Source: Mizuhopecten yessoensis
Lineage: Eukaryota
Assembly: GCF_002113885.1 (NCBI RefSeq)
Contig: NW_018407733.1
Span: forward strand, 1,552,834-1,610,291
Reading direction: 5' to 3'
Length of the DNA stretch: 57,458 nucleotides
Position numbers and translations under genes: made by a program
Notes under the pieces: model-generated
What the model was told of the DNA's origin: nothing
The model's database searches: none
What the model saw: only the letters and a program-made list of their open reading frames with translations
Shown: in pieces, positions 14,501 through 50,169 of the stretch
Numbering within the stretch: the first letter of the stretch is position 1
How the letters are laid out: every line of letters begins with the position of its first letter

Positions 14501-14670
14501 TTGTTCACTTTATCTCATTGTTAACTCTATCTTTTGTTCACTTTGTCTCTTTGTTCACTCTATCTCTTTGTTCACTCTGTCTCATTATTCACTCTGTCTC
14601 ATTGTCCACTATGTCTCTTTGTTCACTCTGTCGTATTGTTCACCCTGTCGTATTGTTCACTCTATCACTC
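11510..14670. repeat. 17-bp satellite (CTCTGTCTCATTGTTCA)n, ~3.1 kb, intronic
   Basis: Visible array with a homogeneous core at ~12840-13250; source of the spurious SLFTLSHC ORFs. Confidence 0.97.
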
Positions 14671-15539
14671 TATCCCACACTATCATTAGACAGAAATGTA
14701 TATCCTGTTACTGTAATCGTTGATTTCAGTGGATTATGGATTAAATTGTGAAATATAGTTTAAACTTTGTTTCATTTAAAAAGTGAACACGATCAATATA
14801 AACAGGTTTATTAGAGGGTTATGAAAACAAGATAAAAGTTCATGTTTAAGACAAAATCACGTGACGACACTGGATGTAATTTGAACAGCCCACCCCTTAC
14901 AAGTGAATCCGTAGTGTTTGTAACTGAACACATGTTTACCTAAGGGCTACCCGACGTTGTAGTGTCATAGCTTAATTATAAAGTTCGACATATACACACA
15001 ACATCAAATTAAACTATACGCTGCACTGTGCGCATTCTCCATTATACTGACATATTCCAGGGGTGTACAGAGCGAAAGTGAGTGTAACCCATAAATATCG
15101 AGAGTGGAACATACCGGGAACACACTGTCCATAGGCCGACCACAGTGCATGTTTTCCCGTTACAATTTTGTTTGTTTGTGTTTAACAGCCCATCGACAAC
15201 TGTGGTCATTTAGGGGCATGGGGATTTATGTATTGTTTGTTAAACAAACATGTGAGTAGCGAAGATAATATCAGATAAAAAAGAATATTTTTAAAAGCAT
15301 TCTTATGATATGTGTAAATAATTAAAATAAAAAGGGGGGCTAAAATAATCAGAGAAATAATGAATAAATTATATGGAATATGTGATTGTATATAAATAAC
15401 GTCAAAGAGGGCAAGGTGAGTTAAAAGAAATCCGAGTCTGGTGTCTTTCAAATAGTTAAATAATGCCATCGAGTCCACGGATCCAGTTACAACTCTAACC
15501 AATTAAATCACCAATAGCGATAGGAATAAGTTATATTAA

Positions 15540-24440: not shown

Positions 24441-25367
24441 ATCGATATATTGCTTAATTCATATTTATCTTGACAACTAAAAGTTTACCGAGCTTAAACA
24501 TCTACCTGAATATAAATAACATAAACAAGGCCAACTAATAAAATAAAAATAGTAATAAAATTACAAAACAACAACAAATAAACCAACAAATAACAATAAT
24601 GAAAACCATAAGACGACCAATGATATATCATATCATTCAAGAGTCAAAAATTATAGGGTAATTGATATTTACACGTAAGTGAAATCAACAATTTGAATAG
24701 CACCAATGTCAGTTTTCATATATTTATGTAAATTAGGTACTGATAAACTATTTGTCAGTTGAAACAGGGAAGGAAGAGCTGATATCTTTAATCCCTTGGA
24801 TGTTTAATCAAACTATCAAATTAAATCGAATATATAAAGTAGTGTATAGAGTTGTTACAAACTAACAATGAATAGTTGTATAGAGTATGTTGACCGTTTG
24901 ATCCATAGACAAGGGTTATATATATATATATAGCATCAACAAATTGACTCGGAACTACATGACAACAATTAGTCTCTATTTTACGTAATCCTAGTCTAAT
25001 ACGGAAGTAAAATTTGACATTATCGTTTGGTTAAGGCCGCCTGATGGAAGGGCTACAACATTTTTGTACATGTTTAACTTTGATCTGAGGTGTAAACAAG
25101 TAAACGAAAGATGCAGTTCCTATATACAATAACTACTTGATCACATGATTTTCAGCAATATATTTTATGACGAATTTATTGATTGATTAATGCATATCAA
25201 TAAATCAAGGATGATTTAAGCATATTTCTTTTACATAATAAACATACCGGAAACAATTTTTGAATACAATTGTATATTGTTTTCTGGATTACCTTCAGAT
25301 CATAATAGAAGGCCTTATTTTATTTTTAAATATAGATATCTAATGTATTCCATCTTTTTGATTCCAG

Positions 25368-25689
25368 TGCGGAGCTGATACCCATAGTATTAGGAGCCAG
25401 GAAGGAAGACTACGCCCAAGTATTACCTAAACATTCTTACATCCATGTGGAAGACTTCGAGTCCCCTCAAATGCTAGGCGAATATTTAAATCTGTTGGAC
25501 AAAAATGACACCTTATATAATGAATATTTCAAATGGAAAGAGACAGGAGATAAAATCATCGATGATTTGAATTGGTGCAGAGTCTGTACACTTCTCCATG
25601 AAACGTCACTTCCGGTCATGTGGTATGAGGACATCCAACATTGGTGGAAGCCAGATGGAGCCTGCAATGGTGCTAAAAAATGGGATTAA
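25368..25689 (+). CDS. Fucosyltransferase gene A1, coding exon 2 (spliced protein 475 aa)
   Basis: AG at 25366-25367; IPIVLGARKEDY...PKHSYIHVEDFESP..LGEYL..LDKNDTLYNEYFKWK...WCRVC; TAA at 25687-25689. Confidence 0.92.
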
Positions 25690-26142
25690 TTGTTCTTTTC
25701 TTTTCCTTTATTAATATTAATTAAAACATTTTTTAACAACTTCACAAAGAGAGAATGGGAGGGGGTGGAATTTTAAACATTCATCAGTGAATTGTTTTGT
25801 CTCCAAATCTATCCAGGTGCTGTAATTTGCAGTTATCTATCGATAATGCCAGATTACTGCAGTAGACATGTCCGTCAGATATATGTCAATGCATGTATAG
25901 TCATAACCCATACCCGGATGTGTTCAAGTGGCTAAGGTCAGTGTAGCCTATGGCATTACTGACCAGGCGAAAAGAAATAGTGACTATAACGCTGGACCAA
26001 GTGTATATACTCGGACTATACATATATTGCTGTTGGCAAGTAACACCCTAGGCTCAAATGATGGTTGCCAAAATACCAGGAAGTATGGTATGTACTATTT
26101 TACTCCGAGGACGGTTTAACCATTTTCCGGACACAAGGGAAT

Positions 26143-27377
26143 ATGAAACGGATGTTTGTTATTTGTGTACGTTGGTATCCAACTTTCGTACCAGTGTTTG
26201 TGGGTGTTTGGTTTTTTATTTTATTTAGCATCGTCTATAGAGCACAATTTCCATACAAACACGTTTCTTTACAAAAAAGGATTTCGGAAACATTTGTTTT
26301 CGATATTGAATATGATTCAACAAAACATTCTGAAAATACTATTTTCCATGTGGAGCCATGGAATTACGATTACGATTCGGACGACGAATTGTTGACAACT
26401 CCATTATCACTGAAAGTAGCATCAACTCGAACATATTCAGTCTCGACATCGGCTAAAATAACAGCATCATCTTCTACGGAAAGGTCAAGTGCGCTGCCAC
26501 CTAAAGAACCTACTGAACTAACAACTAAATTCCAGGGAAGGACTTTTCAGAAAATGGCGACTCTGGAAATTTATGATTCAAAGTTTACAGACGAATTTGA
26601 CCACGGTGTGTCTCGTGACATACTGGACCTACTGCCTGTTCGGACTCACATTTTAGACATGTCAATCCCTGAAAAAGATGTGAAATATAACGCTGGACGA
26701 ATTTTCCATCAACTGAATCACGTGTCAATAAAGTATAACTCCGCCAATGTCAAGGTTGTTTATCTCTCAGGAAAGCAAGGTTTTTGGCACCATCCGCCAG
26801 GGATGGCGGCGTTTGAGCAGTGTCGTATAAAGGCATGTAAGATAACATACGATACAAAACATGGAGCTGACGCTGACGCAGTTGTGTTTAGTAACCCTGG
26901 GCAACTTCCACGGATACCTCCATTTCCGAGGAAGTCTCCGAATCAAGTATGGGCGGTATCTATGATTGAGTGCCCAATGAATTCTAGGACGCTGAAAAAG
27001 TACAACGGGCTTTTTAATTGGACCATGACTTATCGAACTGATTCAGTGATAGAAACACCGTATTTCAAATACCAGAAATATAAGGACGTTTACACTAAGA
27101 CAAACATTACGACAAATTACGCCAATGGGAAGACAAAAAAAGTTGCTTGGTTAGTTTCTAATTGCATGATGACAAGAAGTGGGAGGATGGCTTATGCTAA
27201 AAAACTTGCCAAATATATTGAAGTAGATATTTATGGTGCATGCGGAACAAAACGCTGCCCCCAGATAGAGGATGAAAAATGTATGCGCATGCTCGAGACT
27301 GATTACAAGTTTTACCTGGCGTTCGAAAACACCAAATGTCTGGATTACGTCACCGAAAAAGCTGTCAAGGCGTTAAA
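26143..27377 (+). CDS. Alpha-1,3-fucosyltransferase (GT10, FucTA-like) gene B1, coding exon 1
   Basis: First in-frame ATG 26143; TM anchor FVPVFVGVWFFILFSIVY; Ser/Thr-rich stem; ADAVVF, IECP, FNWTMTYRTDS, KKVAWLVSNC, YKFYLAFENTKCLDYVTEK; GTAAGT donor at 27378. Confidence 0.93.
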
Positions 27378-27887
27378 GTAAGTGATCTTTATCTAAGGGT
27401 AACGCATTTCATTTCTTTACTCTTAATTATGTTGAAAATAACGCATTGATTTGCTTGTCGTGAGCTTAAAACCTATATACATGGAACATTTTATTGCAGC
27501 TAATTTATTAAAACATGTGGGTTTTTTAAATGAACGTTTAAACGGGTTTTTACACTGGTGAAGCAGTTTTACCGTTTATTCGGTAATCAGAAGAATTAAT
27601 TGTACCAACCGGCTAATAAACTCGTACATGTAACAGTGAACTGTTTGGTTGGAGCAAAACCCAAAAATATACTCATTACGGTTTTATCATTCTGTGAGAA
27701 CGGTACATACGTTAACGGATCCCAGTGTAACTTTGATTTATCTAAGATTTGTTTGCTGTGATCGGGTGTTTTAACGGTGTATGTAATGGGTTATATTTCA
27801 ACATTAAAAGTTGTTGTGTGTACAATGGTACAGGTTGTACTTCACCTCAGTAAATAAATCGGCTGCTAAACCATGGTAAAAAAACGT

Positions 27888-28480
27888 TTAGACTGTTTGT
27901 AACCATCGGAAAAAATACGGCGACAAATTATGGTAACACTAAAATATAGTTGTTGTTACACATGGGATTTCTGGGCCAATATATCTTTTTAACGATTCTC
28001 TTTTCATTTTCTGATTATTTATTAAATTAGTTTATTTATCATTTTCCAGATATAGCTTAAGATATTGTGTTTGATTTTCGAATCTAATTATCATTATTAA
28101 AACTGTTCTTTTTGTCTCTTTTCAGAAACAAAGTAATACCAATAGTGCTAGGCGCCCCGAAGGCCACATATCAGTCGATACTTNTTAGACTGTTTGTAAC
28201 CATCGGAAAAAATACGGCGACAAATTATGGTAACACTAAAATATAGTTGTTGTTACACATGGGATTTCTGGGCCAATATATCTTTTTAACGATTCTCTTT
28301 TCATTTTCTGATTATTTATTAAATTAGTTTATTTATCATTTTCCAGATATAGCTTAAGATATTGTGTTTGATTTTCGAATCTAATTATCATTATTAAAAC
28401 TGTTCTTTTTGTCTCTTTTCAGAAACAAAGTAATACCAATAGTGCTAGGCGCCCCGAAGGCCACATATCAGTCGATACTT
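27888..28480. other. Probable assembly artefact: 296-bp direct duplication around a single N (28184), duplicating the B1 acceptor
   Basis: 27888-28183 repeats as 28185-28480; the right-arm homologue has only one copy. Confidence 0.9.
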
Positions 28481-28753
28481 CCAAGCGGATCTTTCATTCA
28501 TGTAGAGGACTTCCGGTCTCCTGAGGAACTTGCGCAGTATTTACACAAATTGGACAAAAACGATACTTTGTATAATGAGTACTTCCGTTGGCGGGAGGAG
28601 GGCGAGTTCATTGAAACAAAGCCATGGTGTCGACTGTGTGGGCTTCTGCATGAACCCCTCCTGCCCCCCGTGTGGTACAATGACATTGAACAGTGGTGGC
28701 GACCAAAGGATGTTTGTATCGGTAAATCGGATTGGGCGGATACATTGTCATGA
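28423..28753 (+). CDS. Fucosyltransferase gene B1, coding exon 2 (spliced protein 521 aa)
   Basis: tttgtctcttttcAG acceptor (28421-28422); AA|A gives KAL-K-NKVIPIVLGAPK...SFIHVEDF...LDKNDTLYNEYFRWR...WCRLC; TGA at 28751-28753. Confidence 0.92.
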
Positions 28754-28764
28754 CGGTGAACCTC

Positions 28765-28776
28765 AATAAAAATAAA
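28765..28776 (+). promoter_or_regulatory. Tandem AATAAA polyadenylation signals after gene B1
   Basis: AATAAAAATAAA 12 bp after the stop; retained in B2 (~41742-41753, minus strand). Confidence 0.5.
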
Positions 28777-30579
28777 ACCTGACCCTGTCATGAAATTTAC
28801 GTACTATAAGTATGTTCCAAGCATCACTACGTGTATTTCACAGCAGTACAGTTTGATAGCATCGTCTTTCTCCAAGCAGAGGAAGAAGGAGGAATGGTCG
28901 ACATGTCAAGCTGACAAACATGAAGCTTACCAAGCCGAGGGTTCGGATCCCAAATCTCAACCACTAGGAGTGATTTTTCGGATACGTTTATCCACCAACT
29001 TTTCAGTTTTCAGTCCCCGTCCTAGAATGAAGGCAAGCTTAACACGGTGACCTGGAAGTAGGACCTGCTTTAGGTTGATACAATACATACTTAATACGAA
29101 AGGTTTATTTTATGTTTGATACGCACACATTTACTTATTTGTCTAGTGGGACTACACTTTTCTACACTATTGACTATCTTTGCTCAGTCCCGACATATTC
29201 CTATGGTGTTTAGTAACAGTAATTGGTAGGAGAAAAGGTGCAATGTTTCCGCTTTGTGTGAGGGATAAAGCCTGGGGAGTTAAATCAAAAGGGTGGAATC
29301 TCAGCCCTCGGGGTAAGATTAACTGATGTATAGCTCTCTCCGACGTCTCGGGCTCGACATATATATTTTTCTTTCTTAATTTCAAAGTGTGGAAAGGGAA
29401 CCTCGATAATTCATTCACCCTTTTTACAAGCAAAAGTGGCTGGTTTAGGAGACAACTCGATTACTGGGACAGATTTTTACAGGAAAAATCACAGTTATGC
29501 ATCCAAACAATACGAAAACCGGATAAGTGGTGGCTGGATGATCGAGGTTCGACTTTTAGATCTAATCATAGCAAAGTTAACGTTATTAAAAGTCTTCAAA
29601 GTGTTAAAATCTTGACGTTAAGCTAACTATACATTGAACAACTTGGCCTATATTGTATTATTACTATTTACTTATTGTTGAAAATTATTTATTTGTATTT
29701 GTAGCTCTAACGATTAAGTTTGCTGGCGGGCTTTTTTGTCAATGCCTTGCGGATTGGGACTCCGGGGCTCCGCACCCAATGTTTATTTTTATATTTCTCA
29801 ACAATAACAATTTATCAAAGCTTGAACACAACAGTAATATAATTTATTTACATTGTATATGGCGTTTGATTTATTTGTTTTAATGAATATCAGAAAAATG
29901 AATACTGTCTATAATTAAATGACTTAAATGATACGACATGCTTAAGAATAAGATACTCAAGCAAACTGTGATAAGACGGAAGTTCACTGTTACACTAGTA
30001 ATTATCTACGACATTACTTGCAATAATTTTAAATTAACCTTTAAAGCAATTTATACATTTAAACGTTACAAGACGCTTAATTGAGCGTTTTTAGATAACG
30101 CCAAACTAATAACTTAATCTCCAGATTTAGAGGTTTTACATAATTTAACAGCAACAACAACATCAGCAGCAGCAACAACAGCAAGCTGCTGCTTCTTAGC
30201 CGCCCTCGCTGCAATGTCAACAACATATTTTCTCGGTTTGGTCGATCTGCACAGGAGAAGGTCACACTCGTCATTGATATCATACTGAGTATCCTTGTCT
30301 CTGGGACGATTTTACAAAGTTCAAATGCCTTCCAAACAACTTAAAAATTAGCCGTTTCCCTTATATGGCCTCACTTCTGATTACTCTTGGATAAAACAAT
30401 CTCTATATTTATACAACATTAAATTTTCTTGGCCAAGGGATGCTCCGTTCCATGTAAGGTTAACATAGTTTCACTCGTACTGAAGGAGGCGTTTTTTATT
30501 TACCCCTGTATGACCTCACTTCTCTTTTTCACCCTATGTATTCAACGTTAAATTCCCTTCAGCCTGGGGTGTTCCGAAC

Positions 30580-30800
30580 CACAGGGACCTGAGAATTTGT
30601 TACAGCTATATTTGTACCTAAACTAAGTTGTTCAGAGTAATTCTACACGTTAAGGAGTAAGATCAACTTTCTGTATAACATCATCATTGGGGTGTCTTTT
30701 TTTACCGAAAGTTTATCTTAACCACTAAAACGTGTAAAATTACTCTGAACACCTTAGTTTAGTTCCAAATATATCCGTAACTAATTCCCAGGTCCCTGTG
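30580..30800. mobile_element. 221-bp MITE with ~70-bp TIRs (CACAGGGACCTG...) and 8-bp TSD TTCCGAAC
   Basis: TSD at 30572-30579 and 30801-30808; related half copies at ~45654-45720 and ~46217-46320. Confidence 0.85.
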
Positions 30801-31199
30801 TTCCGAACAAAATAAGGATAGTTTATTCTAACTAAAGGAGCAATAATTAAGAACGGAATTCCCAGTTTCTCCATACAGTTTCAATCTTCCGCCCCTTAAC
30901 CCTGTGATTCCGAAGGAAACAAATGTCATCAGTATATATCTATTACTAAATCCCTGTGATTCCGATAGAAACACATGCCATCATTATATATATCTATTAC
31001 AAAAACCCTGTGATCGAGCGTCATTGTTCAGGCCAAAAAATTGCTTTCAACAAACCGTTTCAAAAATGAGCATAAACTATTTTATGAAGAAAAAAGATGA
31101 GCCCAGAAAAAGTACAATTCAATGTTTTTACACTGACATGTTACCTTAACTATGAACTATTCAAAACAGTAGGAATATTGTTTGTTCTAGGTTACAATT

Positions 31200-34036: not shown

Positions 34037-34197
34037 CCAGATATGCAGGACATTTGATATATCACCTTTATGTTAGCTCGGCTGCCAAGGAGAGAATTTA
34101 CCTGAAATTAGAGTCTTTGTTGAGCTATCATACCTAACTCGCATCTCTTAACAAACCGGAGTAATAATACCCGGCGTTCTACTGTACTCAAAACAGA

Positions 34198-34381
34198 ACC
34201 CACTACGGTGTTATCTTAAACGAAATTAAGGGGAGGTAACTGTTTGTATATATTACGAGCGTACGTTTTTAAAAACACACTTTTTCAACAGCAGGCACAC
34301 TACTTCTGAGAATCCCACAGTAGTTTTTCATACAAACAGTTACCTCCCCTTAATTTCCTTTAAGATAAAGCGGTAGTGGGT
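34198..34381. repeat. Inverted repeat with 52-bp arms (48/52 match) and 80-bp spacer
   Basis: 34198-34249 ACCCACTAC...GAAATTAAGGGGAGGTAACTGTTTGTAT vs revcomp of 34330-34381. Confidence 0.92.
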
Positions 34382-34474
34382 AGGGCAACCCCAGAGGAAG
34401 TGTTTCGTTTTGCACACGGCACGCAAATACAGACTATATTACCGATCGCCGGATGTCGGTTTGTCAGTTCAAAA

Positions 34475-35675
34475 ATGGCGGTCGAAGTGTCAACATCAAC
34501 AAGCTCTTGGTTAGATTCCTCTGGAATTTGGCTTTCCTGTATCAATAAGAAAGTCTACACTGTACAAATGAGAGACTGTCCAAGTATAAAAGTAAAAGTT
34601 CGTGTAGGACACCTAGCGCCAGCAAACAAGACTGCTGTTAGACGTTGCATCCTGTTCGCCGACGACGAGTTACTGGAGTCAACATTCGCCAACAAAACGT
34701 CACCAGCCTTGCTACTAGTCAACAATTCTTGTAATTTTAAGGTATTTTTGTTTTTCTTACAAAGTCAAATCCAAGAAAAAACGAAGCGAATTATTGGGAA
34801 ATATTTCTTGTTTTTGAAAACCGATGATTTCTTTCAAATGAACAAATTGGGTCTTCAAACAGTGCAAACCGACACCATGTACATTTGTGCATGTATTGCA
34901 ATTGTGTTTTATACATATACCTATTTTATGGTGTTCTATGACGAAGTTCTCTTTGTGTGTTATATAATATTTTCCTTTTGTTTCAGTTTTACAAAGATGC
35001 AGCCAGTGGTAATTTTAGCATTGGAAGGGAGCCTTGGGCTGTACTAGTATGGTCATTTGCCATTGTTCCAGGAGCAACTTTCCAAGGGAGACCTGATCAT
35101 ATCAATGCTCTAGATCTACCCGGTATGCCTGTTCACAATCTGAACTTTCTAGATCAAGTTCAACAATGTTCATGTCTTGGTGGAGGAAGCATCTTTGTGC
35201 AAATTGAAAATAATGCTATTTCAAGAACTGAACTTACTGACTTGGGCAGTGACAGTGATGAGGATGACGACCAAAGTAGTTCGGAACCAAATAGTGATGA
35301 GGATGAACATTACACTTCCATCATTCAGATAAGAGGATCAACATACGGGGAACATTACCGGCAAAATTTAAAAGATGTGCAGAGTGCCCTAAGACAATGT
35401 CCATTTGTGCCAGTCAGACTTTTGTCAGAAGAAGACAATCCAATGTTACTGTTAATAGCAAGGACCTTAAGCTTGGCTATATAGGTGTAAAACATATACC
35501 AAAGGTAACAAAGGCTATGAAATCGAGAGAAATAGTGAAGACATCTATGAAGTCCGTCACATCGTGGTACGTCAGAAACATTAGTTCGAGAAAACTGAAG
35601 GGATCCATCATTATCTGCAAGAAAGGGAAATGGCTTCCAGATTCAGACAATAATGTTTATAATGCAGATTTGTAA
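34475..35675 (+). pseudogene. Two-exon gene for an unknown N-domain + acidic linker + HIRAN-like domain protein (~318 aa), frameshifted near 35442
   Basis: AAAAATGGCG start at 34475; exon 1 to 34741; phase-0 GT..AG intron 34742-34986 (acceptor ttttccttttgtttcag); exon 2 has SDSDEDDD...SDEDE then IQIRGSTY...Q.L...VRLLSEEDNP and, in the shifted frame, VTVNSKDLKLGYIG, matching the HIRAN pattern. Confidence 0.7.
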
Positions 35676-36382
35676 ATATTTAATTGTCATATGTAAATGT
35701 ACATATGTATAAATACAAAAATTACTGGGGCAACCCTATGGTTTCCGGAGGGCCTGGGTTGCAATCCTTATTTGGCTCGTGGTACTATCACTCCCAAAAC
35801 ACTGTTGTCGAGCATAAAAAAAAATCATAAAAGTTCCGAAAGGTGTTTTTTTTTATATAAGATTTATTAACCTAGCTATATTCTAATGCCGGAAGATAAA
35901 TTTTCAATTTGTGTAATTATGTAGTTTAGATTTGTTTTAAACATATTTTATTGTAATTTATATAACAACTTATATTAAGCCCTTTTCCTACAATTTATTA
36001 CTAAAAATTATCAAGATGGCATATTTTTATCAGTCCTTGGTAGTTTTTTCATGAAAATCCAAGAATGAAGAAAATCCTTTTAATATGCTATGTCCATTTA
36101 TAACTGAAGGTACCAGATTCTCATAACATAAAAATACCAAATCACCTATTCTGTAAACCTACAAACAAAATAATACACCCCTGACGCCCAAGAAATAAGG
36201 GAAATAACTCTAAAGTGACTTAGCGAAAATCGTTTATAGCAATATATATCTCATACATCCTGCAGGTGGGAAAGTCACTTTTGATAAAACAAGGGATGGA
36301 AGCAGGGTAAAAAGTTAAGTTGAAATAAAGGATACGCAATAGAAAAATAACCATATAACAAACCAGTCCCCGACTGATATAG

Positions 36383-38128
36383 GAAAGCTGCAACGTATGT
36401 GTTCTGACCACGTGCGGGTAGTTCCGTTTATAACAAGGACAAGTCTACCACCCCACAGCAATTTTATGTTCAGTCGAACATATTTATGTAAACATGAGTA
36501 CCTTCAAATGGATACATATATATGTACCACCGTGGGGCGATATATAATCTGAAGCGGTACACCGTTTTTAGACTGTTCAAAGCTTAAGAGGAGGATATAG
36601 AATAGGAAGAACTGTATTACCACTATAAACTGTATAAAACGACCCGTAAAATAGGTCCTCTCGCTCATTCGGCGTCAAACCCTACAAGGTTAGCGCGGGT
36701 AAAGGAGGGAGGCCAATTGTGCTATATGGCCCTATCAATTAGGTAGGAATAACGGGATATACGAATAATGAACTAATAATCAATATCTGTTTATCTAACA
36801 CAGCGAATAGTGTAATAACAACAATATCCAATCAATCAAAATAATAAACAAATTAAGTTAATCTTACAAAAACTAATAAACATATATTAAATTCAAAAAA
36901 AACAAAAACATTTCACTTCCGGTTGATCTAAGAAAGCTGCAACGTATGTGTTCTGACCACGTGCGGGTAGTTCAGTTTAAAAAAAGGACGAATCTGCTAT
37001 CCTACAGCCATCTTATGTCTAGCCGCTCATATATATGTATACATGAGTACCTTCAAATGGATACATATATATGTACCACCGTGGGGCGATGTACAATCTG
37101 AAGAAGTACGCCGTTTTTAGACTATTCAAAGCTTAAGAGGAGGATATAGAATAGGAAGAACTGTATTACCACTATAAACTGTATAACACGACCCGTAAAA
37201 TAGGTCCTCTCGCTCATTCGGCGTCAAACCCTACAAGGTTAGCGGAGGTAAAGGAGGGAGGCCAATGGTGCTATATGGACCTATTAATTAGGTAGGAATA
37301 ACGGGATAAACGAATAATGAAGTAATAATCAATATCTGTTTATCTAACACAGGAAATAGTGTAATAGCAACAATATCCAATCAATCAAAATAATAAACAA
37401 ATTAAGTTAATCTTACAAAAACTAATAAACATTTATTAAATTTAAAACCCCCACTAACATCAGTTTCACTTCCGGTTGATGTAAGAAAGCTGCAACGTAT
37501 GTGTTCTGACCACGTGCGGGTAGTTCCGTTTATAAAAAAGGACGAGTCCGCCACCCCACAGCAATCTTATGTCTAGTCGCTCATATATATGTATACATGA
37601 GTACCTACAAATGGATACATATATATATGTACCACCGTGGGGCGATGTACAATCTGAAGCGGTACGCCGTTTTTAGACTGTTCAAAGCTTAAACGGTGGA
37701 AATAAAGTAGCACAGAAATGTATTACCACTATAAACTGTATAATACGACCCATAAAATAGGTCCTCTCGCTCATTCGGCGTCAAACCCTACAAGGTTAGC
37801 GCGGGTAAAGGAGGGAGGCCAATGGTGCTATATGGCCCTATTAATTAGGTAGGAATAACGGGATAAACGAATAATGAACTAATAATCAATATCTGTTTAT
37901 CTAACACAGCGAATGGGGTAATAACAACAATATCCAATCAATCAAAATAATAAACAAATTAAGTTAATCTTACAAAAACTAATAAACATTTATTAAGTTA
38001 AAAAAAAAACTTAAACATTTCACTTCCGGTTGATGTAAGAAAGCTGCAACGTATGTGTTGTGACCACGTGCGGGTAGTTCCGTTTATAAAAAGGACGAGT
38101 CTGCCACCACACAGCAACCTTATGTCTA
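36383..38128. repeat. ~552-bp tandem repeat, three full copies plus a partial fourth
   Basis: GAAAGCTGCAACGTATGTG starts at 36383, 36932, 37485 and 38039 (periods 549, 553, 554). Confidence 0.95.
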
Positions 38129-38684
38129 ATAGAGTAAAATACTATATATATGTGTATACATGATTAAATACACGTAAATGTAAACACAACAACCACTAAA
38201 ATATCCTCACACAATCAAACAACCAACCCCTCCCCCTCCCACAAACCATCCCAAACACCACTCCGGTCCAGATTAACAGCATTTAATAAAACCCATAAAT
38301 CCTTCTGCACATCTCTTGACACCCAGCACATCTTTCAACATCCATCCCATCCAGGTTATAACGCAACTATAACACTAATCCGGATTAAGGAGTGCAAGAA
38401 AATATACTCAAAAGCTATTAGTATCTAGAATATAATGGTGACATTTGTTTCTTTCGAATCACAAGGTTTTTGTAGGAGATATATATATAATGATGACATG
38501 TGTTTCTTTACCTGTGTACCATGATTTCAACGGGTTCAGGACTACTTCTTTACAAGGAAAATAATGATTTAGGGGTAAGAATCTCCTCCGGGGCGGAAGA
38601 TTGAAACTGTATAGGGAAACTGGGAATTCCGTTCTTAATTATTGCTCCTTTAGTTAGAATAAACTATCCTTATTTTGTTTGGAA

Positions 38685-38904
38685 CACAGGGACCTGGGAA
38701 TTAGTTACGGATATATTTGGAACTAAACCAAGGTGTTCAGAGTAATTTTACACGTTTTCGTGGTTAAGATAAACTTTCGGTAAAAATGCGACCCAAATGA
38801 TGATGTTATACCGAAAGTTGATCTTACTCCTTAACGTGTAGAATTACTCTGAACAACTTAGTTTAGGTACAAATATAGCTGTAACAAATTATCAGGTCCC
38901 TGTG
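38685..38904. mobile_element. Right-arm copy of the CACAGGG MITE
   Basis: Same TIRs; TSD GTTTGGAA / GTTCGGAA. Confidence 0.85.
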
Positions 38905-38991
38905 GTTCGGAACCCCACAGGCTGAATGGGATTTAACGTTGTATAACTGAAGGATGTATCTAGGGTGAAAAAGAGAAGTGAGGCCATAAAG

Positions 38992-39250
38992 GGGTTATTG
39001 CTTACAGATGATGGTAATTCTGCATCTTGTGACATCCTTGACTTGTAGTCCGTCACTGCTGTCATTCTAGTCGCGAAGCCTCATTTGACGTCATCAGGTG
39101 ATGGCCAGCCCTCTTCAGATNGGGTTATTGCTTACAGATGATGGTGATTCTGCATCTTGTGACATCCTTGACTTGTAGTCCGTCACTGCTGTCATTCTAG
39201 TCGCGAAGCCTCATTTGACGTCATCAGGTGATGGCCAGCCCTCTTCAGAT
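38992..39250. other. Probable assembly artefact: 129-bp duplication around a single N (39121)
   Basis: 38992-39120 repeats as 39122-39250 with one substitution (ggtaatt vs ggtgatt). Confidence 0.85.
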
Positions 39251-39762
39251 GTTTCGACCCTTAATCACTACATCCTCCGGCTGGTGGGTCAGTAGTGGTG
39301 GCCAAATCACTACTCGTCTATGTCGGCTTTCACATCGGCTCTTCTCGTATATATTTTTAAAAAAAAAACGTCTCCTTCAATACGAGTGAAACTATTTTAA
39401 CTTAACATGGTATGCTCCATCCCTTGGACAAGAAAATTCAATGTTGTATAAATGTAGAGATTGTTTTATCCGGGAGTAATCGGAAGTGAGGCCATATAAG
39501 GGAAACGGCAATTTTTTAAGTTGTTTTGAAGGCATTCGTCCCAGAGACAAGGCTATTCAGTATTATATCAATGACAAGTGTGGCCTTCCCCTGTGCAACC
39601 TGTTGTTGTTGATGTTATTGTTGTTGTTGTTGTTATATTATGTAAAATCTCTAAATCTTGAGATTAAGTTATTAGTTGGGCGGTATTTAAAAGCGCTCAA
39701 TTAAGCTAAAGTCCTGTAACGTTTTAATGTATGAATTTTTTTAGAGGTTCACTTTATGTTCA

Positions 39763-40095
39763 GGAGGCACGGTAGTGTAGTGGTAGGACTCCGGTCTCGT
39801 GGCCGAAGGGTTACGGGTTCGAGTCACGACAAGACACTTTGAGCAATATACTTTACTCCGCTTGTTCCAGTCTACTCAGCTGTAAATGAGCACTTGGTTG
39901 GGCGGTGCTAGAATTGTAGAATGCTAGCTGTGAGCGCCGAAATTGCAGCACCGGCTGTATGCTCCCCAGAGAGTAGAGAAAGATATTGCCTGGTTGCAAA
40001 GGCGCATAATAATTTGTGAACCGCATTGAGACGACCTACGCACTAGGTTGTGATAAAGCGGTATATAAGAACCTCGGATTATTATTATTTTTATT
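39763..40095 (+). mobile_element. tRNA-derived SINE with CORE-like centre and (ATT)n tail, right-arm specific
   Basis: A box TAGTGTAGTGG, B box GGTTCGAGTC, centre tttgagcaa..ctttactcc...cagtctactcagctgtaaatgag, tail aagcggtatataagaacctcggattattattatt. Confidence 0.85.
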
Positions 40096-41763
40096 ATCAT
40101 GTTTAATTCTATTATTTCCTTTAAAGAAAATAGTAGCAGGGATTTTGAATTTGAAACTATTCCCAGTAATGATAATTACTAATGTAACAGTGAACTTCCA
40201 GCCTTTTCCCAGTTTGCTTGTATATCTCATTCTACTACGTCATATCATTTAAGTCATTTCAGTATAGACAGTATTCATTTTTCTAATATTCGTTGAAACA
40301 AATACGCCAAACCGCATACACAATGTAAATCAATTATATTACTGTGGTGTTTAAGCTTTGATTAATTGTTATTGTAGAGAAATATAAGAATAAACATTGG
40401 TGCGGAGCCTCGGAGTCCCAATCCGTAAGGCATTGACAAAAAATCACCCAGCAAACTTAATCTGTGACGGACGCGAATATATATCATTCTAATAAATGTG
40501 TAAAGCTGTTCTGTGTGGTAAATGGTCTGGCATTCGTAATTCAGATGATGTCGAATTGGAGCTCTCCTTCGTTGGAGATACAATCACCTTAACCTAATTC
40601 GTCCGGCAATCATAATATGATCATATTTTCTATTTGTGTTTAATTTTATTTTCTAATTGGTGTTTTTCAGTCTAAAAGCAACAAATAAATAACTGTTTCA
40701 ACACAGCAGATTTATTTAAAATAAATCATTTTCAACAATAAATAAATAATAATAATACAATATAGGCCAAGTTGTTCAATGTATGGTTAGCTTAACGTCA
40801 GGATTTTAATACTTTGTTAAAGACTTGTCAAACTAACAAGACTTTGAATAACGTTAACTTTGCTCTTAAAATCACGTGTATAGATCTAAAGTCGAACCTC
40901 GATCATCCAGCCACCACTTATCCGGTTGTCATATTTTTGGATACATAAGTATGTTTTTTCCTGTAAAAACTGTCCCAGTAATCGAGTTGTCTCCTAAACC
41001 AGCCACTTTTGCTTGTAAAAAGGGTGAATGAATTATCGAGGTTCCCTTTCCTCACATTGAAATTAAGACAGGTAAATCTCCACACAACGGGTAAATTCAT
41101 CTATATAAACCCGAGACGTCGGACAAAGCTATACGTCAGTTAATCTTACCCCGAGGGCTGAGATTTCCCTCTTTTGATTTTTACTCCCCAGGCTTAATCC
41201 CTCACACAAACGGAAACATTGCAGCTTTCCTCCTACCAATTACTGTTACTAAACACCATAGAAACATGTCGGGACTGAGCAAAAATAGTCAATAGTGTAG
41301 CGGGTTGTTTGTGGCAGAGACACAAAATTAGCAAGAAACATGTAGCCCCACTAGACAAACAAGTAAATGTGTACACTGAACCATTCATCGGGTTTGCGTA
41401 TCATAAATTACAAAAATCTTTCATATTAGATGTATTGTATCATCCTAAAGCAGGTCCTACTTCCAGGTCACCGTGTTAAGCTTGCCTTCATTCTAGGACG
41501 GGGACTGCAAACTGCAAAGTTGGTGGATAAACGTATCCGAAAAATCACTCCTAGTGATTGAGATTTGGGATCCCAACCCCCGGATTGGTAAGCTTCATGT
41601 TTGTCAGCTTGACATGTCGACCATTCCTCCTTCTTCCTTTGCTTGGAGAAAGACGATACTATCAATCTGTTCTGCTGTGAATTACACGTAGTGATGCTTG
41701 GAACATACTTATAGTACGTAAATTTCATGACAGGGTCAGGTTTTATTTTTATTGATTTCACCG

Positions 41764-42094
41764 TCATGACAATGTATCCGCCCAATCCGATTTACCGATA
41801 CAAACATCCTTTGGTCGCCACCACTGTTCAATGTCATTGTACCACACGGGGGGCAGGAGGGGTTCATGCAGAAGCCCACACAGTCGACACCATGGCTTTG
41901 TTTCAATGAACTCGCCCTCCTCCCGCCAACGGAAGTACTCATTATACAAAGTATCGTTTTTGTCCAATTTGTGTAAATACTGCGCAAGTTCCTCAGGAGA
42001 CCGGAAGTCCTCTACATGAATGAAAGATCCGCTTGGTAGTATCGACTGATATGTTGCCTTCGGGGCGCCTAGCACTATTGGTATTACTTTGTTT
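41764..42094 (-). CDS. Fucosyltransferase gene B2, coding exon 2
   Basis: Protein identical to B1 exon 2; acceptor AG at 42096-42095; intron 42095-42776 (682 bp). Confidence 0.92.
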
Positions 42095-42776
42095 CTGAAA
42101 AGAGACAAAAAGAACAGTTTTAATAATGATAATTAGATTCGAAAATCAAACACAATATCTTAAGCTATATCTGGAAAATGATAAATAAACTAATTTAATA
42201 AATAATCAGAAAAGGATAAGAGAACCGTTAAAAAGATATATTGGCCCAGAAATCCCATGTGTAACAACAACTATATTTTAGTGTTACCATAATTTGTCGC
42301 CGTATTTTTTCCGATGGTTACAAACAGTCTAAACGTTTTTTACCATGGATTAGCAGCCGATTTATTTACTGAGGTGAAGTACAACCTGTACCATTGTACA
42401 CACAACAACATGTATTTAATATTGAAATATAACCCATTATATCCACCGTTAAAACACCAGATCACAGCAAACAAATCTTAGATATATCAAAGTTACACTG
42501 GGATCCGTTAACGTATGTACCGTTCTCACACAATAATAAAACTGTGATGAGTATATTTTTGTGGTTTTTGCTCCAAAAAACAGTTCGCCGGTTGGTACGA
42601 GCGTACGTACTTCTTCTGATTACCGAATAGACGGGTTAGCTGCAATTCATACCTACAATGTTCCATGTATATAGGTTTTAAGCTCACGACAAGCAAATCA
42701 ATGCGTTATTTTCAACATAATTAAGAGTGAAGAAATGAAATTTGAACTGCGTTACTCTTAAATAAAGATCACTTAC

Positions 42777-44011
42777 TTTAACGCCTTGACGGCTTTTTCG
42801 GTGACGTAATCCAGACATTTGGTGTTTTCGAATGCCAAGTAAAACTTGTAATCAGTCTCGAGCATGCGCATACATTTTTCATCCTCTATCTGGGGGCAGC
42901 GTTTTGTTCCGCATGCACCATAGATATCTACTTCAATATATTTGGCAAGTTTTTTAGCGTAAGCCATCCTCCCACTTCTTGTCATCATGCAATTAGAAAC
43001 TAACCAAGCAACCTTTTTTGTCTTCCTATTGGCGTAATTTGTCGTAATGTTTGTCTTAGTGTAAACGTCCTTATATTTCTGGTATTTGAAATACGGTGTT
43101 TCTATCACTGAATCAGTTCGATAAGTCATGGTCCAATTAAAAAGTCCGTTGTACTTTTTCAGCGTCCTAGAATTCATTGGGCACTCAATCATAGATACCG
43201 CCCATACTTGATTCGGAGACTTCCTCGGAAATGGAGGTATCCGTGGAAGTTGCCCAGGGTTACTAAACACAACTGCGTCAGCGTCAGCTCCATGTTTTGT
43301 ATCGTATGTTATCTTACATGCCTTTATACGACACTGCTCAAACGCCGCCATCCCTGGCGGATGGTGCCAAAAACCTTGCTTTCCTGAGAGATAAACAACC
43401 TTGACATTGGCGGAGTTATACTTTATTGACACGTGATTCAGTTGATGGAAAATTCGTCCAGCGTTATATTTCACATCTTTTTCAGGGATTGACATGTCTA
43501 AAATGTGAGTCCGAACAGGCAGTAGGTCCAGTATGTCACGAGACACACCGTGGTCAAATTCGTCTGTAAACTTTGAATCATAAATTTCCAGAGTCGCTAT
43601 TTTCTGAAAAGTCCTTCCCTGGAATTTAGTTGTTAGTTCAGTAGGTTCTTTAGGTGGCAGCGCACTTGACCTTTCCGTAGAAGATGATGCTGTTATTTTA
43701 GCCGATGTCGAGACTGAATATGTTCGAGTTGATGCTACTTTCAGTGATGATGGAGTTGTCAACAATTCGTCGTCCGAATCGTAATCGTAATTCCATGGCT
43801 CCACGTGGAAAATAGTATTATCAGAATGTTTTGTTGAATCATATTCAATATCGAAAACGAATGTTTCCGAAATCCTTTTTTGTATAGAAACGTGTTTGTA
43901 TGGAAATTGTGCTCTATAGACGATGCTAAATAAAATAAAAAACCAAACACCCACAAACACTGGTACGAAAGTTGGATACCAACGTACACAAATAACAGAC
44001 ATCCGTATCAT
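42777..44011 (-). CDS. Fucosyltransferase gene B2, coding exon 1
   Basis: ATG 44011; 7 aa differences from B1; GTAAGT donor at 42776. Confidence 0.93.
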
Positions 44012-44454
44012 ATTCCCTTGTGTCCGGAAAATGGTTAAACCGTCCTCGGAGTAAAATAGTACATACCGTACTTCCTGGTATTTTGGCAACCATCATTTGA
44101 GCCTAGGGTGTTACTTGCCAACAGCGATATATGTATAGTCCGAGTATATAAACTTGGTCCAGCGTTATAGTCACTATTTCTTTTCGCCTGGTCAGTAATG
44201 CCTTAGGCTACACTGGCCTTAGCCATTTGAACACATCCGGGTATGGGTTATGACTATACATGCATTGACATATATCTGACGGACATGTCTACTGCAGTAA
44301 TCTGGCATTATCGATAGATATCGGCAAATTATAGCACCTGTATAGATTTGGAGACAAAATAATTCACTGATGAATGTTTAAAATTCCACCCTCCCATTCT
44401 CTCTTTGTGAAGTTGTTGAAAAAAAAAGAAAAAAAGAAAGAAAAGAAAAAACAA

Positions 44455-44776
44455 TCAATCCCATTTTTTAGCACCATTGCAGGCTCCATCTGGCTTCCAC
44501 CAATGTTGGATGTCCTCATACCACATTAACGGAAGTGACGTTTCATGGAGAAGTGTACAGACTCTGCACCAATTCAAATCATCGATGATTTTATCTCCTG
44601 TCTCTTTCCATTTGAAATATTCATTATATAAGGTGTCATTTTTGTCCAACAGATTTAAATATTCGCCTAGCTTTTGAGTGGACTCGAAGTCTTCCACATG
44701 GATGTAAGAATGTTTAGGTAATACTTGGGCGTAGTCTTCCTTCCTGGCTCCTAATACTATGGGTATCAGCTCCGCA
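44455..44776 (-). CDS. Fucosyltransferase gene A2, coding exon 2
   Basis: Acceptor AG at 44778-44777; 3 aa differences from A1; stop TGA; intron 44777-48258 (3,482 bp). Confidence 0.92.
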
Positions 44777-45829
44777 CTGGAATCAAAAAGATGGAATACA
44801 TTAGATATCTATATTTAAAAATAAAATAATGCCTTCTAATATGATCTGAAGGTAATCCAGAAAACAATATACAATTGTATTCAAAAATTGTTTCCGGTAT
44901 GTTTAATATGTAAAAGAAATGCTGAAATCATCCTTGATTTATTGATATTCATTAATCAATCAATAAATTCGTCATAAAATATTGTGCTGAAAATCATGTG
45001 ATCAAGTAGTTATTGTATATTATAATTACATCTTTCGTTTACTTGTTCACACCTCAGATCAAAGTTGAACCATCAGTCGGCCTTAACAAAACGAAAATGT
45101 CTAATTTTACTTCCGTATCAGACTAGGATTACGTAAAATAGAGACTGTTTGTTGTCATGTAGCTCCGAGTCAATATGTACAATATAAAGATAAAAGATGT
45201 TTTCAAATAGTATTTTATCGTCTGAGGTCAAACTACTAGCGATTTGGGGGGACAACATAACCTAGTTACGTCAAATATACAATGTCGAGATCATCCACAG
45301 TAGTACCCGGATGTCAACCGGCAATTCCGTCGCTATTGGGGTATGGGTGTGTTCCAAGAAATCACCCAGACAACTTTACGCCGAGATTCACACCTGAGAG
45401 ATGTTTTTTAAATATCCGACGTTAAATAAAGTGTATTGTATAGGATACCGGAGACAGGCTACGACAGTTGCCTATATTTTCACCCCGAAGATCCTGTCTC
45501 TAAAGAGCTCGACTGCAACAGACACCTCTAACACAGGGACACGAGAAGATGTTACACCTATGTTAGGACCTGCACTGAGTTGTTAAGACTAGTATTACAT
45601 GTTTTAAGGGTTTCGATTTTTCGGTACAAATGCCAAGCCCAATGATTATATATGTAAAATTACTCTGAACACCTCAGTTTAGGTCCAAATATAGCTGTAA
45701 CAAATGATCAGATCCCTGTGACCACCACCACCGAAACATGTGGTTTGATTGGCTGGTTAATTTGAGGGAAGAAATGTCTGGGCTTTTCGGAATCACAGCA
45801 GCTTATCGTACCAAATGTTACGATTAACA

Positions 45830-46218: not shown

Positions 46219-46764
46219 TTTTTACCGAAAGTTGATATAAACCCCTTAAACGTGTAAAACTACTCTTCACACCTTATTTTAGGTCAAAATATAACAGTAA
46301 CAAATTATCAGGTCCCTTTGTTACGTAAGTGTTGGAATGCATGATGGCACAAGCAGACAGGCCTCTTGCCAGTAGCTAATGGAGAATGTGCCCTTGGTCC
46401 AGGGGTACAGGTACGCATATTGAATGCGTCATTTTCGCCATGAAATGCATTTTTTATACATTTGTGTACAGGAAGTGTATGTCGAACTCCATAATTAAGC
46501 TATGACACGACAATATCAAATTTAGCGTTGTGAGTAGTTTACGTCGGGAAGCCCTTAGGTACAGATTCACTTGAAAGGGATGGGCTGTTCAAATTACATC
46601 CAAACTGTCGTCATGTGATTTTGTCGTAAACATGAACTTGATCGTGTTGACTTTTTCAATGACAAAAAGTTTAAACTATATTTCACAATTTAATAGTTCA
46701 CTGAAACCAACAATAACAGTAACAGGATATACATTTCTGTCTAATGGAAGTGTCGGAAAGAGAG

Positions 46765-47650
46765 AAAGAGTGAACAAATAGACAGAGTGAGCAATGAGAC
46801 AGAGTGAACAATGAGACAGAGTGAACAATGAGACAGAGTGAACAAAGAGACAGAGTGAACAATGAGTTAGAGTGAACAATAGGACAGAGTGAACAATGAG
46901 ACAGAGTGAACAATGAGATAGAGTTAACAATGAGACAGAATGAACAATGAGATAGAGTTAACAATGGGACAGAGTGAACAATGAGACAGAGTGAACAATG
47001 AGTTAGAGTGAACAATGAGATAGAGTGAATAATGAGACAGAGCGAACAATGAGTTAGAGTGAACAATAAGACAGTGATAACAATGGGACAGAGTGAACTA
47101 TGAGACAGAGTGAACAATGAGACAGAGTGAACAATGAGACAGAGTGAATAATGAGACAGAGTGAACAATGAGACAGAGTGAACAATGAGACAGAGTGAAC
47201 AATGAGATAGAGTTAACAATGAGACAGAGTGAACAATGAGATAGAGTTAACAGTGGGACAGAGTGAACAATGAGACAGAATGAACAATGGGACAGAGTGA
47301 ACAATGAGACAGAGTGAACAATGAGATAGAGTGAACAATGAGACAGAGTGAACAATGAGACAGAGTGAACAAAGAGACAGGGTGAACAATGAGACAGAGT
47401 GAATAATGAGACAGAGTGAACAATGAGTTAGAGTGAACAATGAGACAGTGATAACAATGGGACAGAGTGAACTATGAGACAGAGTGAACAAAGAGAAAGA
47501 GTGAACAATGAGACAGAGTGAATAATGAGACAGAGTGAACAATGAGACAGAGTGAACAATGTGATAGAGTGAACAATGAGACAGAGTGAACAATGAGACA
47601 GAGTGAACAAAGAGACAGGGTGAACAATGAGACAGAGTGAATAATGAGAT
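46765..47650. repeat. 17-bp satellite, right-arm copy (~0.9 kb)
   Basis: (TGAACAATGAGACAGAG)n, reverse complement of the 11510-14670 unit with homologous flanks. Confidence 0.96.
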
Positions 47651-48258
47651 AGCAACTGACGTTGTGTTCGCATTTACATTAACATTTACGACTAAATGTC
47701 ACCATATACAGACAGCTGTGGATGTTGATTTTCACGTTGCCACATGTATTATTGTTATTTAGATAATACGGATATTACGACTATGGTGATGGTTTAGCCA
47801 CGTTGCAACAACCGCGTCCTGAAACTAACATCGATTCATGAAACATTTCTTGTGACAATTTTGCCAAAAATAGAGGTCTTAAATGAACAGCTGTATCATT
47901 GTCGATGAGCTTTAAAATATTGACATAGATATAACTCATTTCTGGGCAGTCTTTCATCATAGTATCGATTGTCACCATTATTATTTTTCTGTTATTTCTT
48001 TGCATGTAAAATATATGAACTAAGTAAGGGTTCAAGTCGGGATTTCGACATAAAATGAATGATGTGTGTTTGTGTGTATGCTGTCTGTCTGTATTCATGT
48101 GTATAAAGTATATGTATATGTAAGAACTTTAAATATCAAACGTTTAAACACTAGGAAGACTATTCTTAAGCATATGAAAAGCATAATTTTCGATAAAAGG
48201 CCTCTTTCTTATGACAGAAAGTGAACATGAGAGGAATGATTGTTTTATAAAAACTTAC

Positions 48259-49364
48259 TCGTAAGCGTTCATCACTTTCTCCGTCAAATAGTCGTGGCAT
48301 TTGTGGTTCTCAAACGACAGGTAGAACTTGTAGTCCCTCCTGGTCATTTCGACGCATTCTTTGTGTTTGGACGCTGGACAAGACAGTGGACCACAGTGCC
48401 CGTAAATGTCCACTTGCACGTGTTTACCCAGTTCTCTTGCATACTCCATACGTCCACTCTTTACAATATTGCAGTTAGAAACCATCCAAGCGACCTTTTT
48501 GGTCCGGCCCTCGGCGAAATTGCGACCTGGGGTCGGGATATCAGGAGGCGTCCAACAATTCCGTCCAATTTTGAAATAGGGATCATAAATTGTAGAGTCT
48601 ACTCTATACGTGTTTGTCCAGTTGAAAAAGTTTTTATAGTTATTCATTGGCCACGATCTATCTGGACTCTCATTGATGTTTAAAATTGCAATTTGTTTAG
48701 AAGATGATTTTTGAAAAGGTGGTGATAACGGTAGAAATCCAGAATTAGCAAACACAACAGCATCAGCCGTGGCCTCCGCACTTCTCTCGTGGGTTAAACT
48801 ACAGCGGTTCACCTTGCAGTGCTTGAAGAATTCTAATCCCGTGGGAACGTTTGTCCATTTTTCCATGTGCCAAATATACACAACTTTGATATCCGATTTA
48901 CTGGAGTAAGTTCTCGGCACATATTCTAATTGTTCGTAAACTCGATCTGACGGAGCATTCGTATGGAGGAAATCGTCCGGAAGTAGGCGCAAAATACGTT
49001 GTTTCTCCGATTCGCTAATGTTAACTTCCGGCGGAAAGTATCTGATGGGATGTAGCCGGTTTTTGGTTCTATCAAAACCAACATTTAAGTTTGTCCTTGT
49101 CGGCGATTTCGAGATGTCTAAACAATAACTTGAATTAAATATTTTTGAATGAAAATCCTCCGATACATAATTATAATCTGACGTTATTTTCTTCGTTATA
49201 ATGACATTGCGAGAGTTGTGTTTGTGTTCCATCTGCCTCACAAAGTAATGCGGTCTCAGATTGATCATTCCTGTTACACAGACTACCATAACGACAGTGA
49301 GAATAAATACCTTTTCCTGCCATTTTGTGTTTCGTGTCCAGAACACTCTTCTCAGTAGTCCCAT
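48259..49364 (-). CDS. Fucosyltransferase gene A2, coding exon 1
   Basis: ATG 49364; 5 aa differences from A1 exon 1; GTAAGT donor at 48258. Confidence 0.93.
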
Positions 49365-50169
49365 AGTTTGATAGAAAGTACACCTGTTCTGCACATTCAC
49401 AAATACAGGGAACTCGTTTAGCCAACATAGAATGACTGTTACACGACTCCCGACGCCCTACATGTATACAGTACTTACTATACGTTACGCCTCGCTTAAT
49501 AAGACAGTGAACTAATGTCTGTTTACACGCGGTAGGACCTCTGAGGACGGTATATACGAAGTGTGTACCCGGCTAACCCTGGGGGGCTATGTATATGTAT
49601 ATATACATATGCAAAGTTCCTGCCTGCAAAACGTGCAATGAAGGAAGTTGCAAATTAGCTACCTTCCGTCGTAACGTGGCACGCACATCGAAACGTCGAT
49701 TAGTCGGAACATAACGAAGAATTAAAAAAGCAGATGAAACAAACGAACGCCAGTATATTATTTAAATCTTTTCTTGTTGAAAAATAAACATATAATTCAT
49801 ATCGGCTTAACAAATTATATTTGAACTCCGGAAATTTGAGCATTATAAATAGGCTATACTGATTAAGGAAGGTAAATCTTGAACTTTTAGCTTAAACAAA
49901 TACTCATGTGTATTTCTACTTGCCAGACTGAGTGGACAAAATACAATCCTTGAAAGGAAATACATTGTTTTCAATAGCTGCTTGAAGCCCCGGTCCGGAC
50001 ATAAGTTGGTAGAGTTATATCTATGGATACTCTCGTTAGCGAGGAAACAATAGGTTGTGTATTCATAGAATCCATCGCTGATGTGAGGTATGAATACGGT
50101 TATTCAAACCCAAGGGATAAAATATTGAGCAGGAGACCCGAGGCTTTGCTTTAAGTTCATCTTTAACTT

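Follow-up and report, generated by a model that had tools for sequence, protein, structure and literature searches.

The window, by which we mean the whole stretch of 57,458 nucleotides of Mizuhopecten yessoensis DNA analysed here, carries what is almost certainly a transposon fragment flanked by a target site duplication (TSD). All features of the fragment lie on the forward strand. The fragment (34392..35727) is the 1,336-bp left arm of a P-like DNA transposon with terminal inverted repeats (TIRs), which we call family A, and it has neither the right arm nor the transposase gene. It begins with the left TIR CAGAGGAAGTGT (34392..34403), which in its family form reads CAGAGGAGGTGT, position 34399 being a private change, and which is the reverse complement of the right end in the complete copies C5590 and C564. 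A subterminal motif, TTTTGCACACGGCAC, follows at 34408..34422; C5590 and C564 show it at both ends, C294 has it on the right, and it is possibly a transposase binding site. The arm stops at a break junction, CTG (35725..35727), which is common to the internal sequence of the element and to the last three bases of its true right end, and which falls where the sequence separating the two convergent genes is AT-rich and foldable (z -3.3). On either side stands one copy of GGGCAACCC, the left one (34383..34391) abutting the conserved left terminus and the right one (35728..35736) followed by a flank that is single-copy in the genome; the 9-mers at other copies differ. A sequence-only reading had already noted this 9-bp direct repeat inside a left site, TAGGGCAACCCCAG (34381-34394), and a right site, CTGGGGCAACCCTA (35725-35738), the letters and positions of which are correct, and the repeat is found within the window only at 34383 and 35728. 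Chance, which that reading had left open, can now be ruled out because the repeat abuts the left terminus exactly (34391/34392) and ten other family-A left ends start at the same terminus with different flanks.

The arm contains the second gene of the element. Exon 1 (34475..34741) encodes the N-terminal part and was located by tblastn with the mussel homologue P0015 (76% over 89 aa); its product gave no family match. A GT-AG intron (34742..34986), placed by the sequence and by the junction in P0017, separates it from exon 2 (34987..35675), which encodes an acidic linker and a HIRAN-like domain and ends at the family stop (35673-35675). The two-exon product, starting at the ATG at 34475, equals the database protein P0017 (Mizuhopecten yessoensis LOC110456622). 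The HIRAN gene described from the letters stands as a two-exon gene but not as an intact frame: a 25-bp deletion after 35441 shifts the frame, removes the D-x-N-A loop and brings in an early stop at 35482-35484. The HIRAN call itself is weak, with a Pfam E of 0.012, below the cut-off, for an intact copy and no match for the window ORF.

The 'palindrome' of the window consists of two inverted duplications, one nested in the other, whose arms (24939-30895 / 38590-45178 and 8851-11140 / 47799-50149) reach 94-96% identity. The two ORFs scanned, at 26065-27381 and 9521-10690, encode GT10 fucosyltransferases and have mirrored ORFs on the opposite arms; we saw no link between these duplications and the transposon. 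Two 17-bp satellite arrays (11392-15000 and 46761-47652) lie inside the outer inverted duplication and are mutually inverted, and single N characters at 28184 and 39121 sit amid near-perfect tandem duplications of 297 and 130 bp, which are likely scaffold-join artefacts. To the left of the arm, a 182-bp MITE-like element (34199-34380) with inverted arms of about 50 bp, CCCACTAC...GTAGTGGG, ends 2 bp ahead of the TSD, and its arms match dozens of genome sites. The spacer to the right (36375-38172) comprises approximately three tandem copies of a unit of about 550 bp, 91% alike.

Copies, ends and target sites

We searched the genome with window positions 34100-36000 and scored 40 of the 248 candidates; among these, the copies found start at 34392, with homology up to 35727. 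Compared with the first 1,336 positions of longer copies, the window arm shows 90-95% identity; against C5590 there are 20 substitutions over 1,336 aligned bases. The left flank differs from copy to copy, and CAGAGGAGGTGT is therefore the true end. The picture on the right is different: whether copies stop at the claimed sites had been put forward as a check, and all five of the other copies that reach the equivalent of 35727 run past it with TGATGTG; the right site therefore does not mark where a cassette naturally ends. From partial copies we estimate a parent element of about 9-10 kb with 12-bp TIRs (CAG...CTG), the true right end being the inverted repeat ...ACACCTCCTCTG. A subterminal motif, TTTTGCACACG, is found in direct orientation at both ends, and its core recurs at the left ends of a sister family, B. 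Two-ended copies bear private 9-bp duplications (TGCTTAGGG in C5590, CCTATAACG in C564 and CTTACTCCA in C76692 of family B), and GGGCAACCC is therefore a TSD. The side options of the sequence-only reading, a 9-bp TSD and a mobile unit, were accordingly right, each copy having its own 9-mer. Among the genomic copies examined we found no intact autonomous one. Ends of the hAT type, TAGGG...CCCTA, were considered and rejected because homology begins at the CAG at 34392.

Several copies carry later changes. C186 (genome G000, L030 201-713) has its left end split after base 43 by an insert of about 380 bp with a duplication of about 14 bp, and C4470 has lost 4 bp exactly at the right junction. The C564 copy (L025 ~1770-3680) holds an insert with a GIY-YIG match and an RT-like ORF that is likely Penelope-like. 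The C5590 copy alone (L021 1644-3116) holds a nested fragment with a weak phage-integrase match, presumably DIRS/Ngaro-like. In long metagenome loci, first 13 and then 7, a TIR/TSD search yielded candidates at chance level only, and the 9-bp TSD is therefore established for the scallop families only.

The targets share a preference. Over 19 targets, all different 9-mers, the commonest letters give the consensus G G T N N N A C C, and target GC is 56% vs 37%. Mirror symmetry is evident across the 18 sites besides that of the window (r 0.75; p 0.016 with random 9-mers as the null and 0.005 with shuffles), while strict pairwise palindromy is weaker (24/72 pairs). The palindromic arms seen around the repeat are modest, pairing at 5/6 positions, a level reached by 387 of 56,929 window 13-mers (0.7%); they are the element ends joined to a palindrome-leaning target, GGT-NNN-ACC. 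Any TIR element in such a target would yield, on paper, both a palindromic 'empty site' and a palindromic 'circle junction'. One-armed copies with perfect TSDs mimic att-flanked cassettes, and annotation may be misled by them.

Transposase and HIRAN-like second gene

Longer copies carry a multi-exon transposase gene on the opposite strand, facing the convergent HIRAN-like gene. Among full-length relatives, a Mytilus protein of 1,104 aa stands closest (82-93% identity by exon); further named relatives come from a nemertean, from lancelets and from a sea anemone. A profile search gave 285 representatives at E<=1e-30, a number that rises to 3,642 at E<=0.001. D443 and D809-x-x-H812 are kept in 14/14 aligned homologues, D653 in 12/14 and E985 in 10/10 homologues reaching that position, consistent with a putative catalytic DDE triad, D443/D653/E985, with a D(2)H motif. 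A model folded from the mussel homologue is of low confidence (pLDDT 58.8, pTM 0.40), and comparisons that use it should be read accordingly. In VIA-align it matches the P transposase 6p5a best (Z 15.4, with 153 residues at rmsd 2.6), the second match scoring 10.2; model residues 668-981 align to chain positions 317-522, where the RNase H fold is split by a GTP-binding-type insertion. P transposase also ranks first in Foldseek (E 0.038), and Atlas features place the enzyme with P/THAP9 clusters (0.90). Pfam matches to P domains were below cut-off, and a PDB sequence search returned nothing useful. Taken together, we are confident that the enzyme is P-like, and we make no claim to membership of the P superfamily.

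Elements of the P superfamily typically have TIRs, a 7-8 bp TSD, an N-terminal THAP domain and a single transposase gene. With this superfamily (P, PDB 6P5A/6PE2; THAP9/Pdre; 1360; Galileo) the scallop element shares the DDE triad with D(2)H, a motif defined for the superfamily in PMC3698922, as well as an intron-containing gene, short TIRs, subterminal motifs, a target consensus and, in the low-confidence model, an RNase H fold interrupted by a large insertion that corresponds to the GTP-binding region of P. Closest among these known systems are the divergent D. buzzatii P element and BuT5, for which the same source describes 9-bp TSDs like those of the scallop element. There are also differences from the superfamily. 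The scallop-type enzyme is about 1,100 aa long, with no THAP match in 8 + 12 homologues and a weak Myb/SANT-like N-terminus (sub-threshold matches in P0006, P0026, P0030, P0034 and P0092), and a helical insertion of approximately 120 residues (469-586) separates its first two RNase H strands. In addition, the subterminal motif is in direct orientation and there is a second, convergent HIRAN-like gene.

A 9-bp TSD also suggested AcademH, described as having a 9-10 bp TSD and two genes (PMC10045372, citing Kojima 2020), and both features are shared by the scallop element. We dropped this candidate on the Pfam, Atlas and fold results, the enzyme folding like P transposase in the low-confidence model, and on the lack of a helicase match in the 42 ORFs of the two longest copies, C294 and C4470, which are decayed, so that short exons could escape detection. 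Pfam is described as having no Academ profile (PMC5751038).

The scallop families A and B, which are about 57-72% alike, show 89-93% amino acid identity to their mussel counterparts (L022 9288-9998; P0001, P0004, P0008); judged from these sequences, horizontal transfer between scallop and mussels is possible.

The convergent second gene is present in both scallop families, C4470 lacking it through an internal deletion, and the pairing extends to metagenomes. Of 99 related metagenome loci the best 80 were examined; the C-terminus of the transposase is included in 32 of these, and a convergent homologue lies downstream of the transposase in 12/17 loci with at least 1.5 kb of sequence there and in 10/11 with at least 2 kb, counts in which one match is weak and in which L216/L217/L219 and L162/L189 are kin. 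Of 14 bivalve-type members, nine match HIRAN (PF08797) at E<=0.1, with 0.0004 as the best value and none shown above the cut-off; among 11 metagenome partners six match, one of them an ORF that exceeds the Pfam cut-off (38.7 vs 24.7 bits). The first HIRAN alignment returned nothing useful against PDB sequences, and HLTF HIRAN chains were the top PDB sequence matches (E 0.04). The model of the protein has a pLDDT of 34.9, and fold and Atlas searches with it were uninformative. An N, an N-A and a G-Y are invariant across 13 sequences. In HLTF, the E/D-x-x-N-x-x-D-x-N-A-I loop of HIRAN makes the contact with the 3' end. The scallop-type protein shares this loop and the G-Y with HLTF/Rad5, but differs in being a stand-alone, transposon-borne protein with an unknown N-terminal domain and an acidic linker. 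HLTF HIRAN is described as binding 3' single-stranded DNA ends (PMC7214843), and the second gene likely encodes a HIRAN-like protein that is predicted to bind DNA ends.

Origin of the one-armed copies

On the indicative evidence of contigs from public runs, in which its junctions recur, the one-armed form in the window is not an assembly error. Contigs from seven such runs were placed on the locus, with the caveat that contigs drop rare forms and that those spanning a junction reach just 27-30 bases into the element, slightly short of the 31-base overlap required. The filled left junction was present in 4/4 runs tested and the truncated right junction in 4/7, the remaining three being without cover of the right flank. 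That flank (35728-35935) is covered in X1, X4, X13 and X14; X6, X8 and X11 show no cover of it (~35728-35810), although X6 and X8 show the left junction, and this is possibly due to a second allele with a further deletion or to filtering. The one-armed form is thus probably common in the species, the contig evidence being indicative.

Nor is the window copy alone in its form. Among 17 left ends (11 of family A and 6 of family B), four belong to two-ended copies, five to one-armed copies with a TSD, and the other eight have sequence gaps or no TSD in the examined span; extending C3615, C5301, C5461 and C4706 revealed no TSD where homology stops. The one-armed copies are 76, 132, 145, 1,336 and 7,986 bp long and all end in CTG followed by the TSD, which is perfect in three and has one mismatch in two. 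The terminal bases they have in common with the true right end number 5, 7, 5, 3 and 3, respectively. In C1843 the last five bases, CTCTG, fit the right end and not the internal sequence at that point, GTCAG; genuine right-end bases have therefore been kept. Of three lone right ends, none was a right-arm-only copy with a TSD in the span examined.

We consider that the window copy and the other one-armed copies arose, with a probability of roughly 70%, through abortive gap repair after excision. A full element would have inserted at GGGCAACCC; at a later excision, one strand would have been cut by the transposase about 5 bases in from each end, so that both flanks kept a short 3' tail. The left flank would then have primed the copying of 1.3 kb from a sister or homologous copy and, once this had halted, the new strand would have annealed to the right tail through CTG. 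We favour this route, with a right tail some 5 nt long, because right-end bases were kept in C1843 and because there are published precedents. For P, Ac and Tc1, deletion derivatives are described as arising when gap repair is interrupted and completed through microhomology (PMC3814204), and P is described as cutting 17 nt inside its ends, one strand within the TIR, with donor breaks mended by HR or NHEJ (PMC7776569). The derivatives of P, Ac/Ds and Tc1 resemble the scallop copies in their internal deletion, microhomology and intact TSD, but differ in that nearly the entire right arm is lost in the five scallop copies. The retained right-end bases, at most 3-7 nt, hint at a cut stagger of about 5 nt, as opposed to the 17 of P. 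That 3/5 tracts are shorter than 150 bp would be expected of aborted synthesis and not of nibbling from the right. Plain gap repair does not explain the left-only bias (5 vs 0), and the case is weakened by the fact that only C1843 of the five junctions clearly requires right-end bases; for the junction of C1616, an internal CTG that has lost three T is an alternative reading.

The window junction fits a cryptic end equally well. If the transposase had used the true left end together with an internal CTG as a surrogate right end, a 1,336-bp piece would have been inserted and the TSD made at that point. P is described as using surrogate ends in 'end bypass' (PMC8277862), four of the five one-armed copies stop at or beside an internal CTG, and the left-only bias would follow if a strong binding site sits at the left end. 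However, C1843 has CTCTG as its last bases at a place where the element internally reads GTCAG, the window junction offers just three TIR bases without the subterminal motif, and every truncation is unique, none having multiplied, so that we regard this route as unlikely. Still less probable, in our view, is a cut at the right end only, after which resection would have removed kilobases on the element side and microhomology would have joined what was left to the short flank tail. This would account for the asymmetry, is in keeping with the sequential cleavage described for P ends (PMC7776569), and has a parallel in the 4-bp loss of C4470 precisely at the right junction; but it predicts small losses on the right, and three of the five copies retain less than 150 bp of 9-10 kb.

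The main proposal of the sequence-only reading, a self-contained cassette integrated as a circle by a tyrosine recombinase at attL/attR-like sites in the manner of a Crypton, is refuted because other copies extend beyond the right site and carry different 9-mers, and we give it next to no credence: the formal geometry of the two sites and the weak integrase-like match in C5590 (Pfam E 0.004) speak for it, but that fragment is a nested insert missing from other copies, the 19 different 9-mers have no common core, and the parent has TIRs and a DDE enzyme. The 42 ORFs of C294 and C4470 include no tyrosine recombinase. The junctions that this proposal had pointed to, empty site and circle, were both absent from the contigs of the seven runs, from which rare forms may drop out, and a genome search for the empty site matched only the window locus. 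Cryptons, which are described as having no TIRs and terminal direct repeats of 4-6 bp (PMC3212892), resemble the scallop element in the short direct repeats flanking both ends, but the latter has 12-bp TIRs, a copy-specific 9-bp repeat and a DDE enzyme.

The window locus itself is a dead one-armed fragment, predicted to be immobile because it has a single end and a frameshifted gene. In the literature searched, with Repbase outside its scope, we found no description of a P-like transposase paired with a HIRAN gene; the family may already be present in Repbase or in curated TE libraries for bivalves (PMC10294476). Very tentatively, and as an idea that we ourselves consider doubtful, the parent may belong to a widespread, undescribed P-like lineage of marine invertebrates whose own HIRAN protein would grip the short 3' donor tails and steer repair to copy-back, the one-armed copies being failures that record a stagger of about 5 nt. 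A P-like enzyme that combines a different DNA-binding module with a conserved HIRAN partner would make the parent a eukaryotic cut-and-paste element with its own DNA-end-binding accessory protein. The parent lineage gives a handle on whether GTP use and the 17-nt stagger hold across P-like enzymes, and on whether transposons control how their donor breaks are repaired, which sets copy-number gain.
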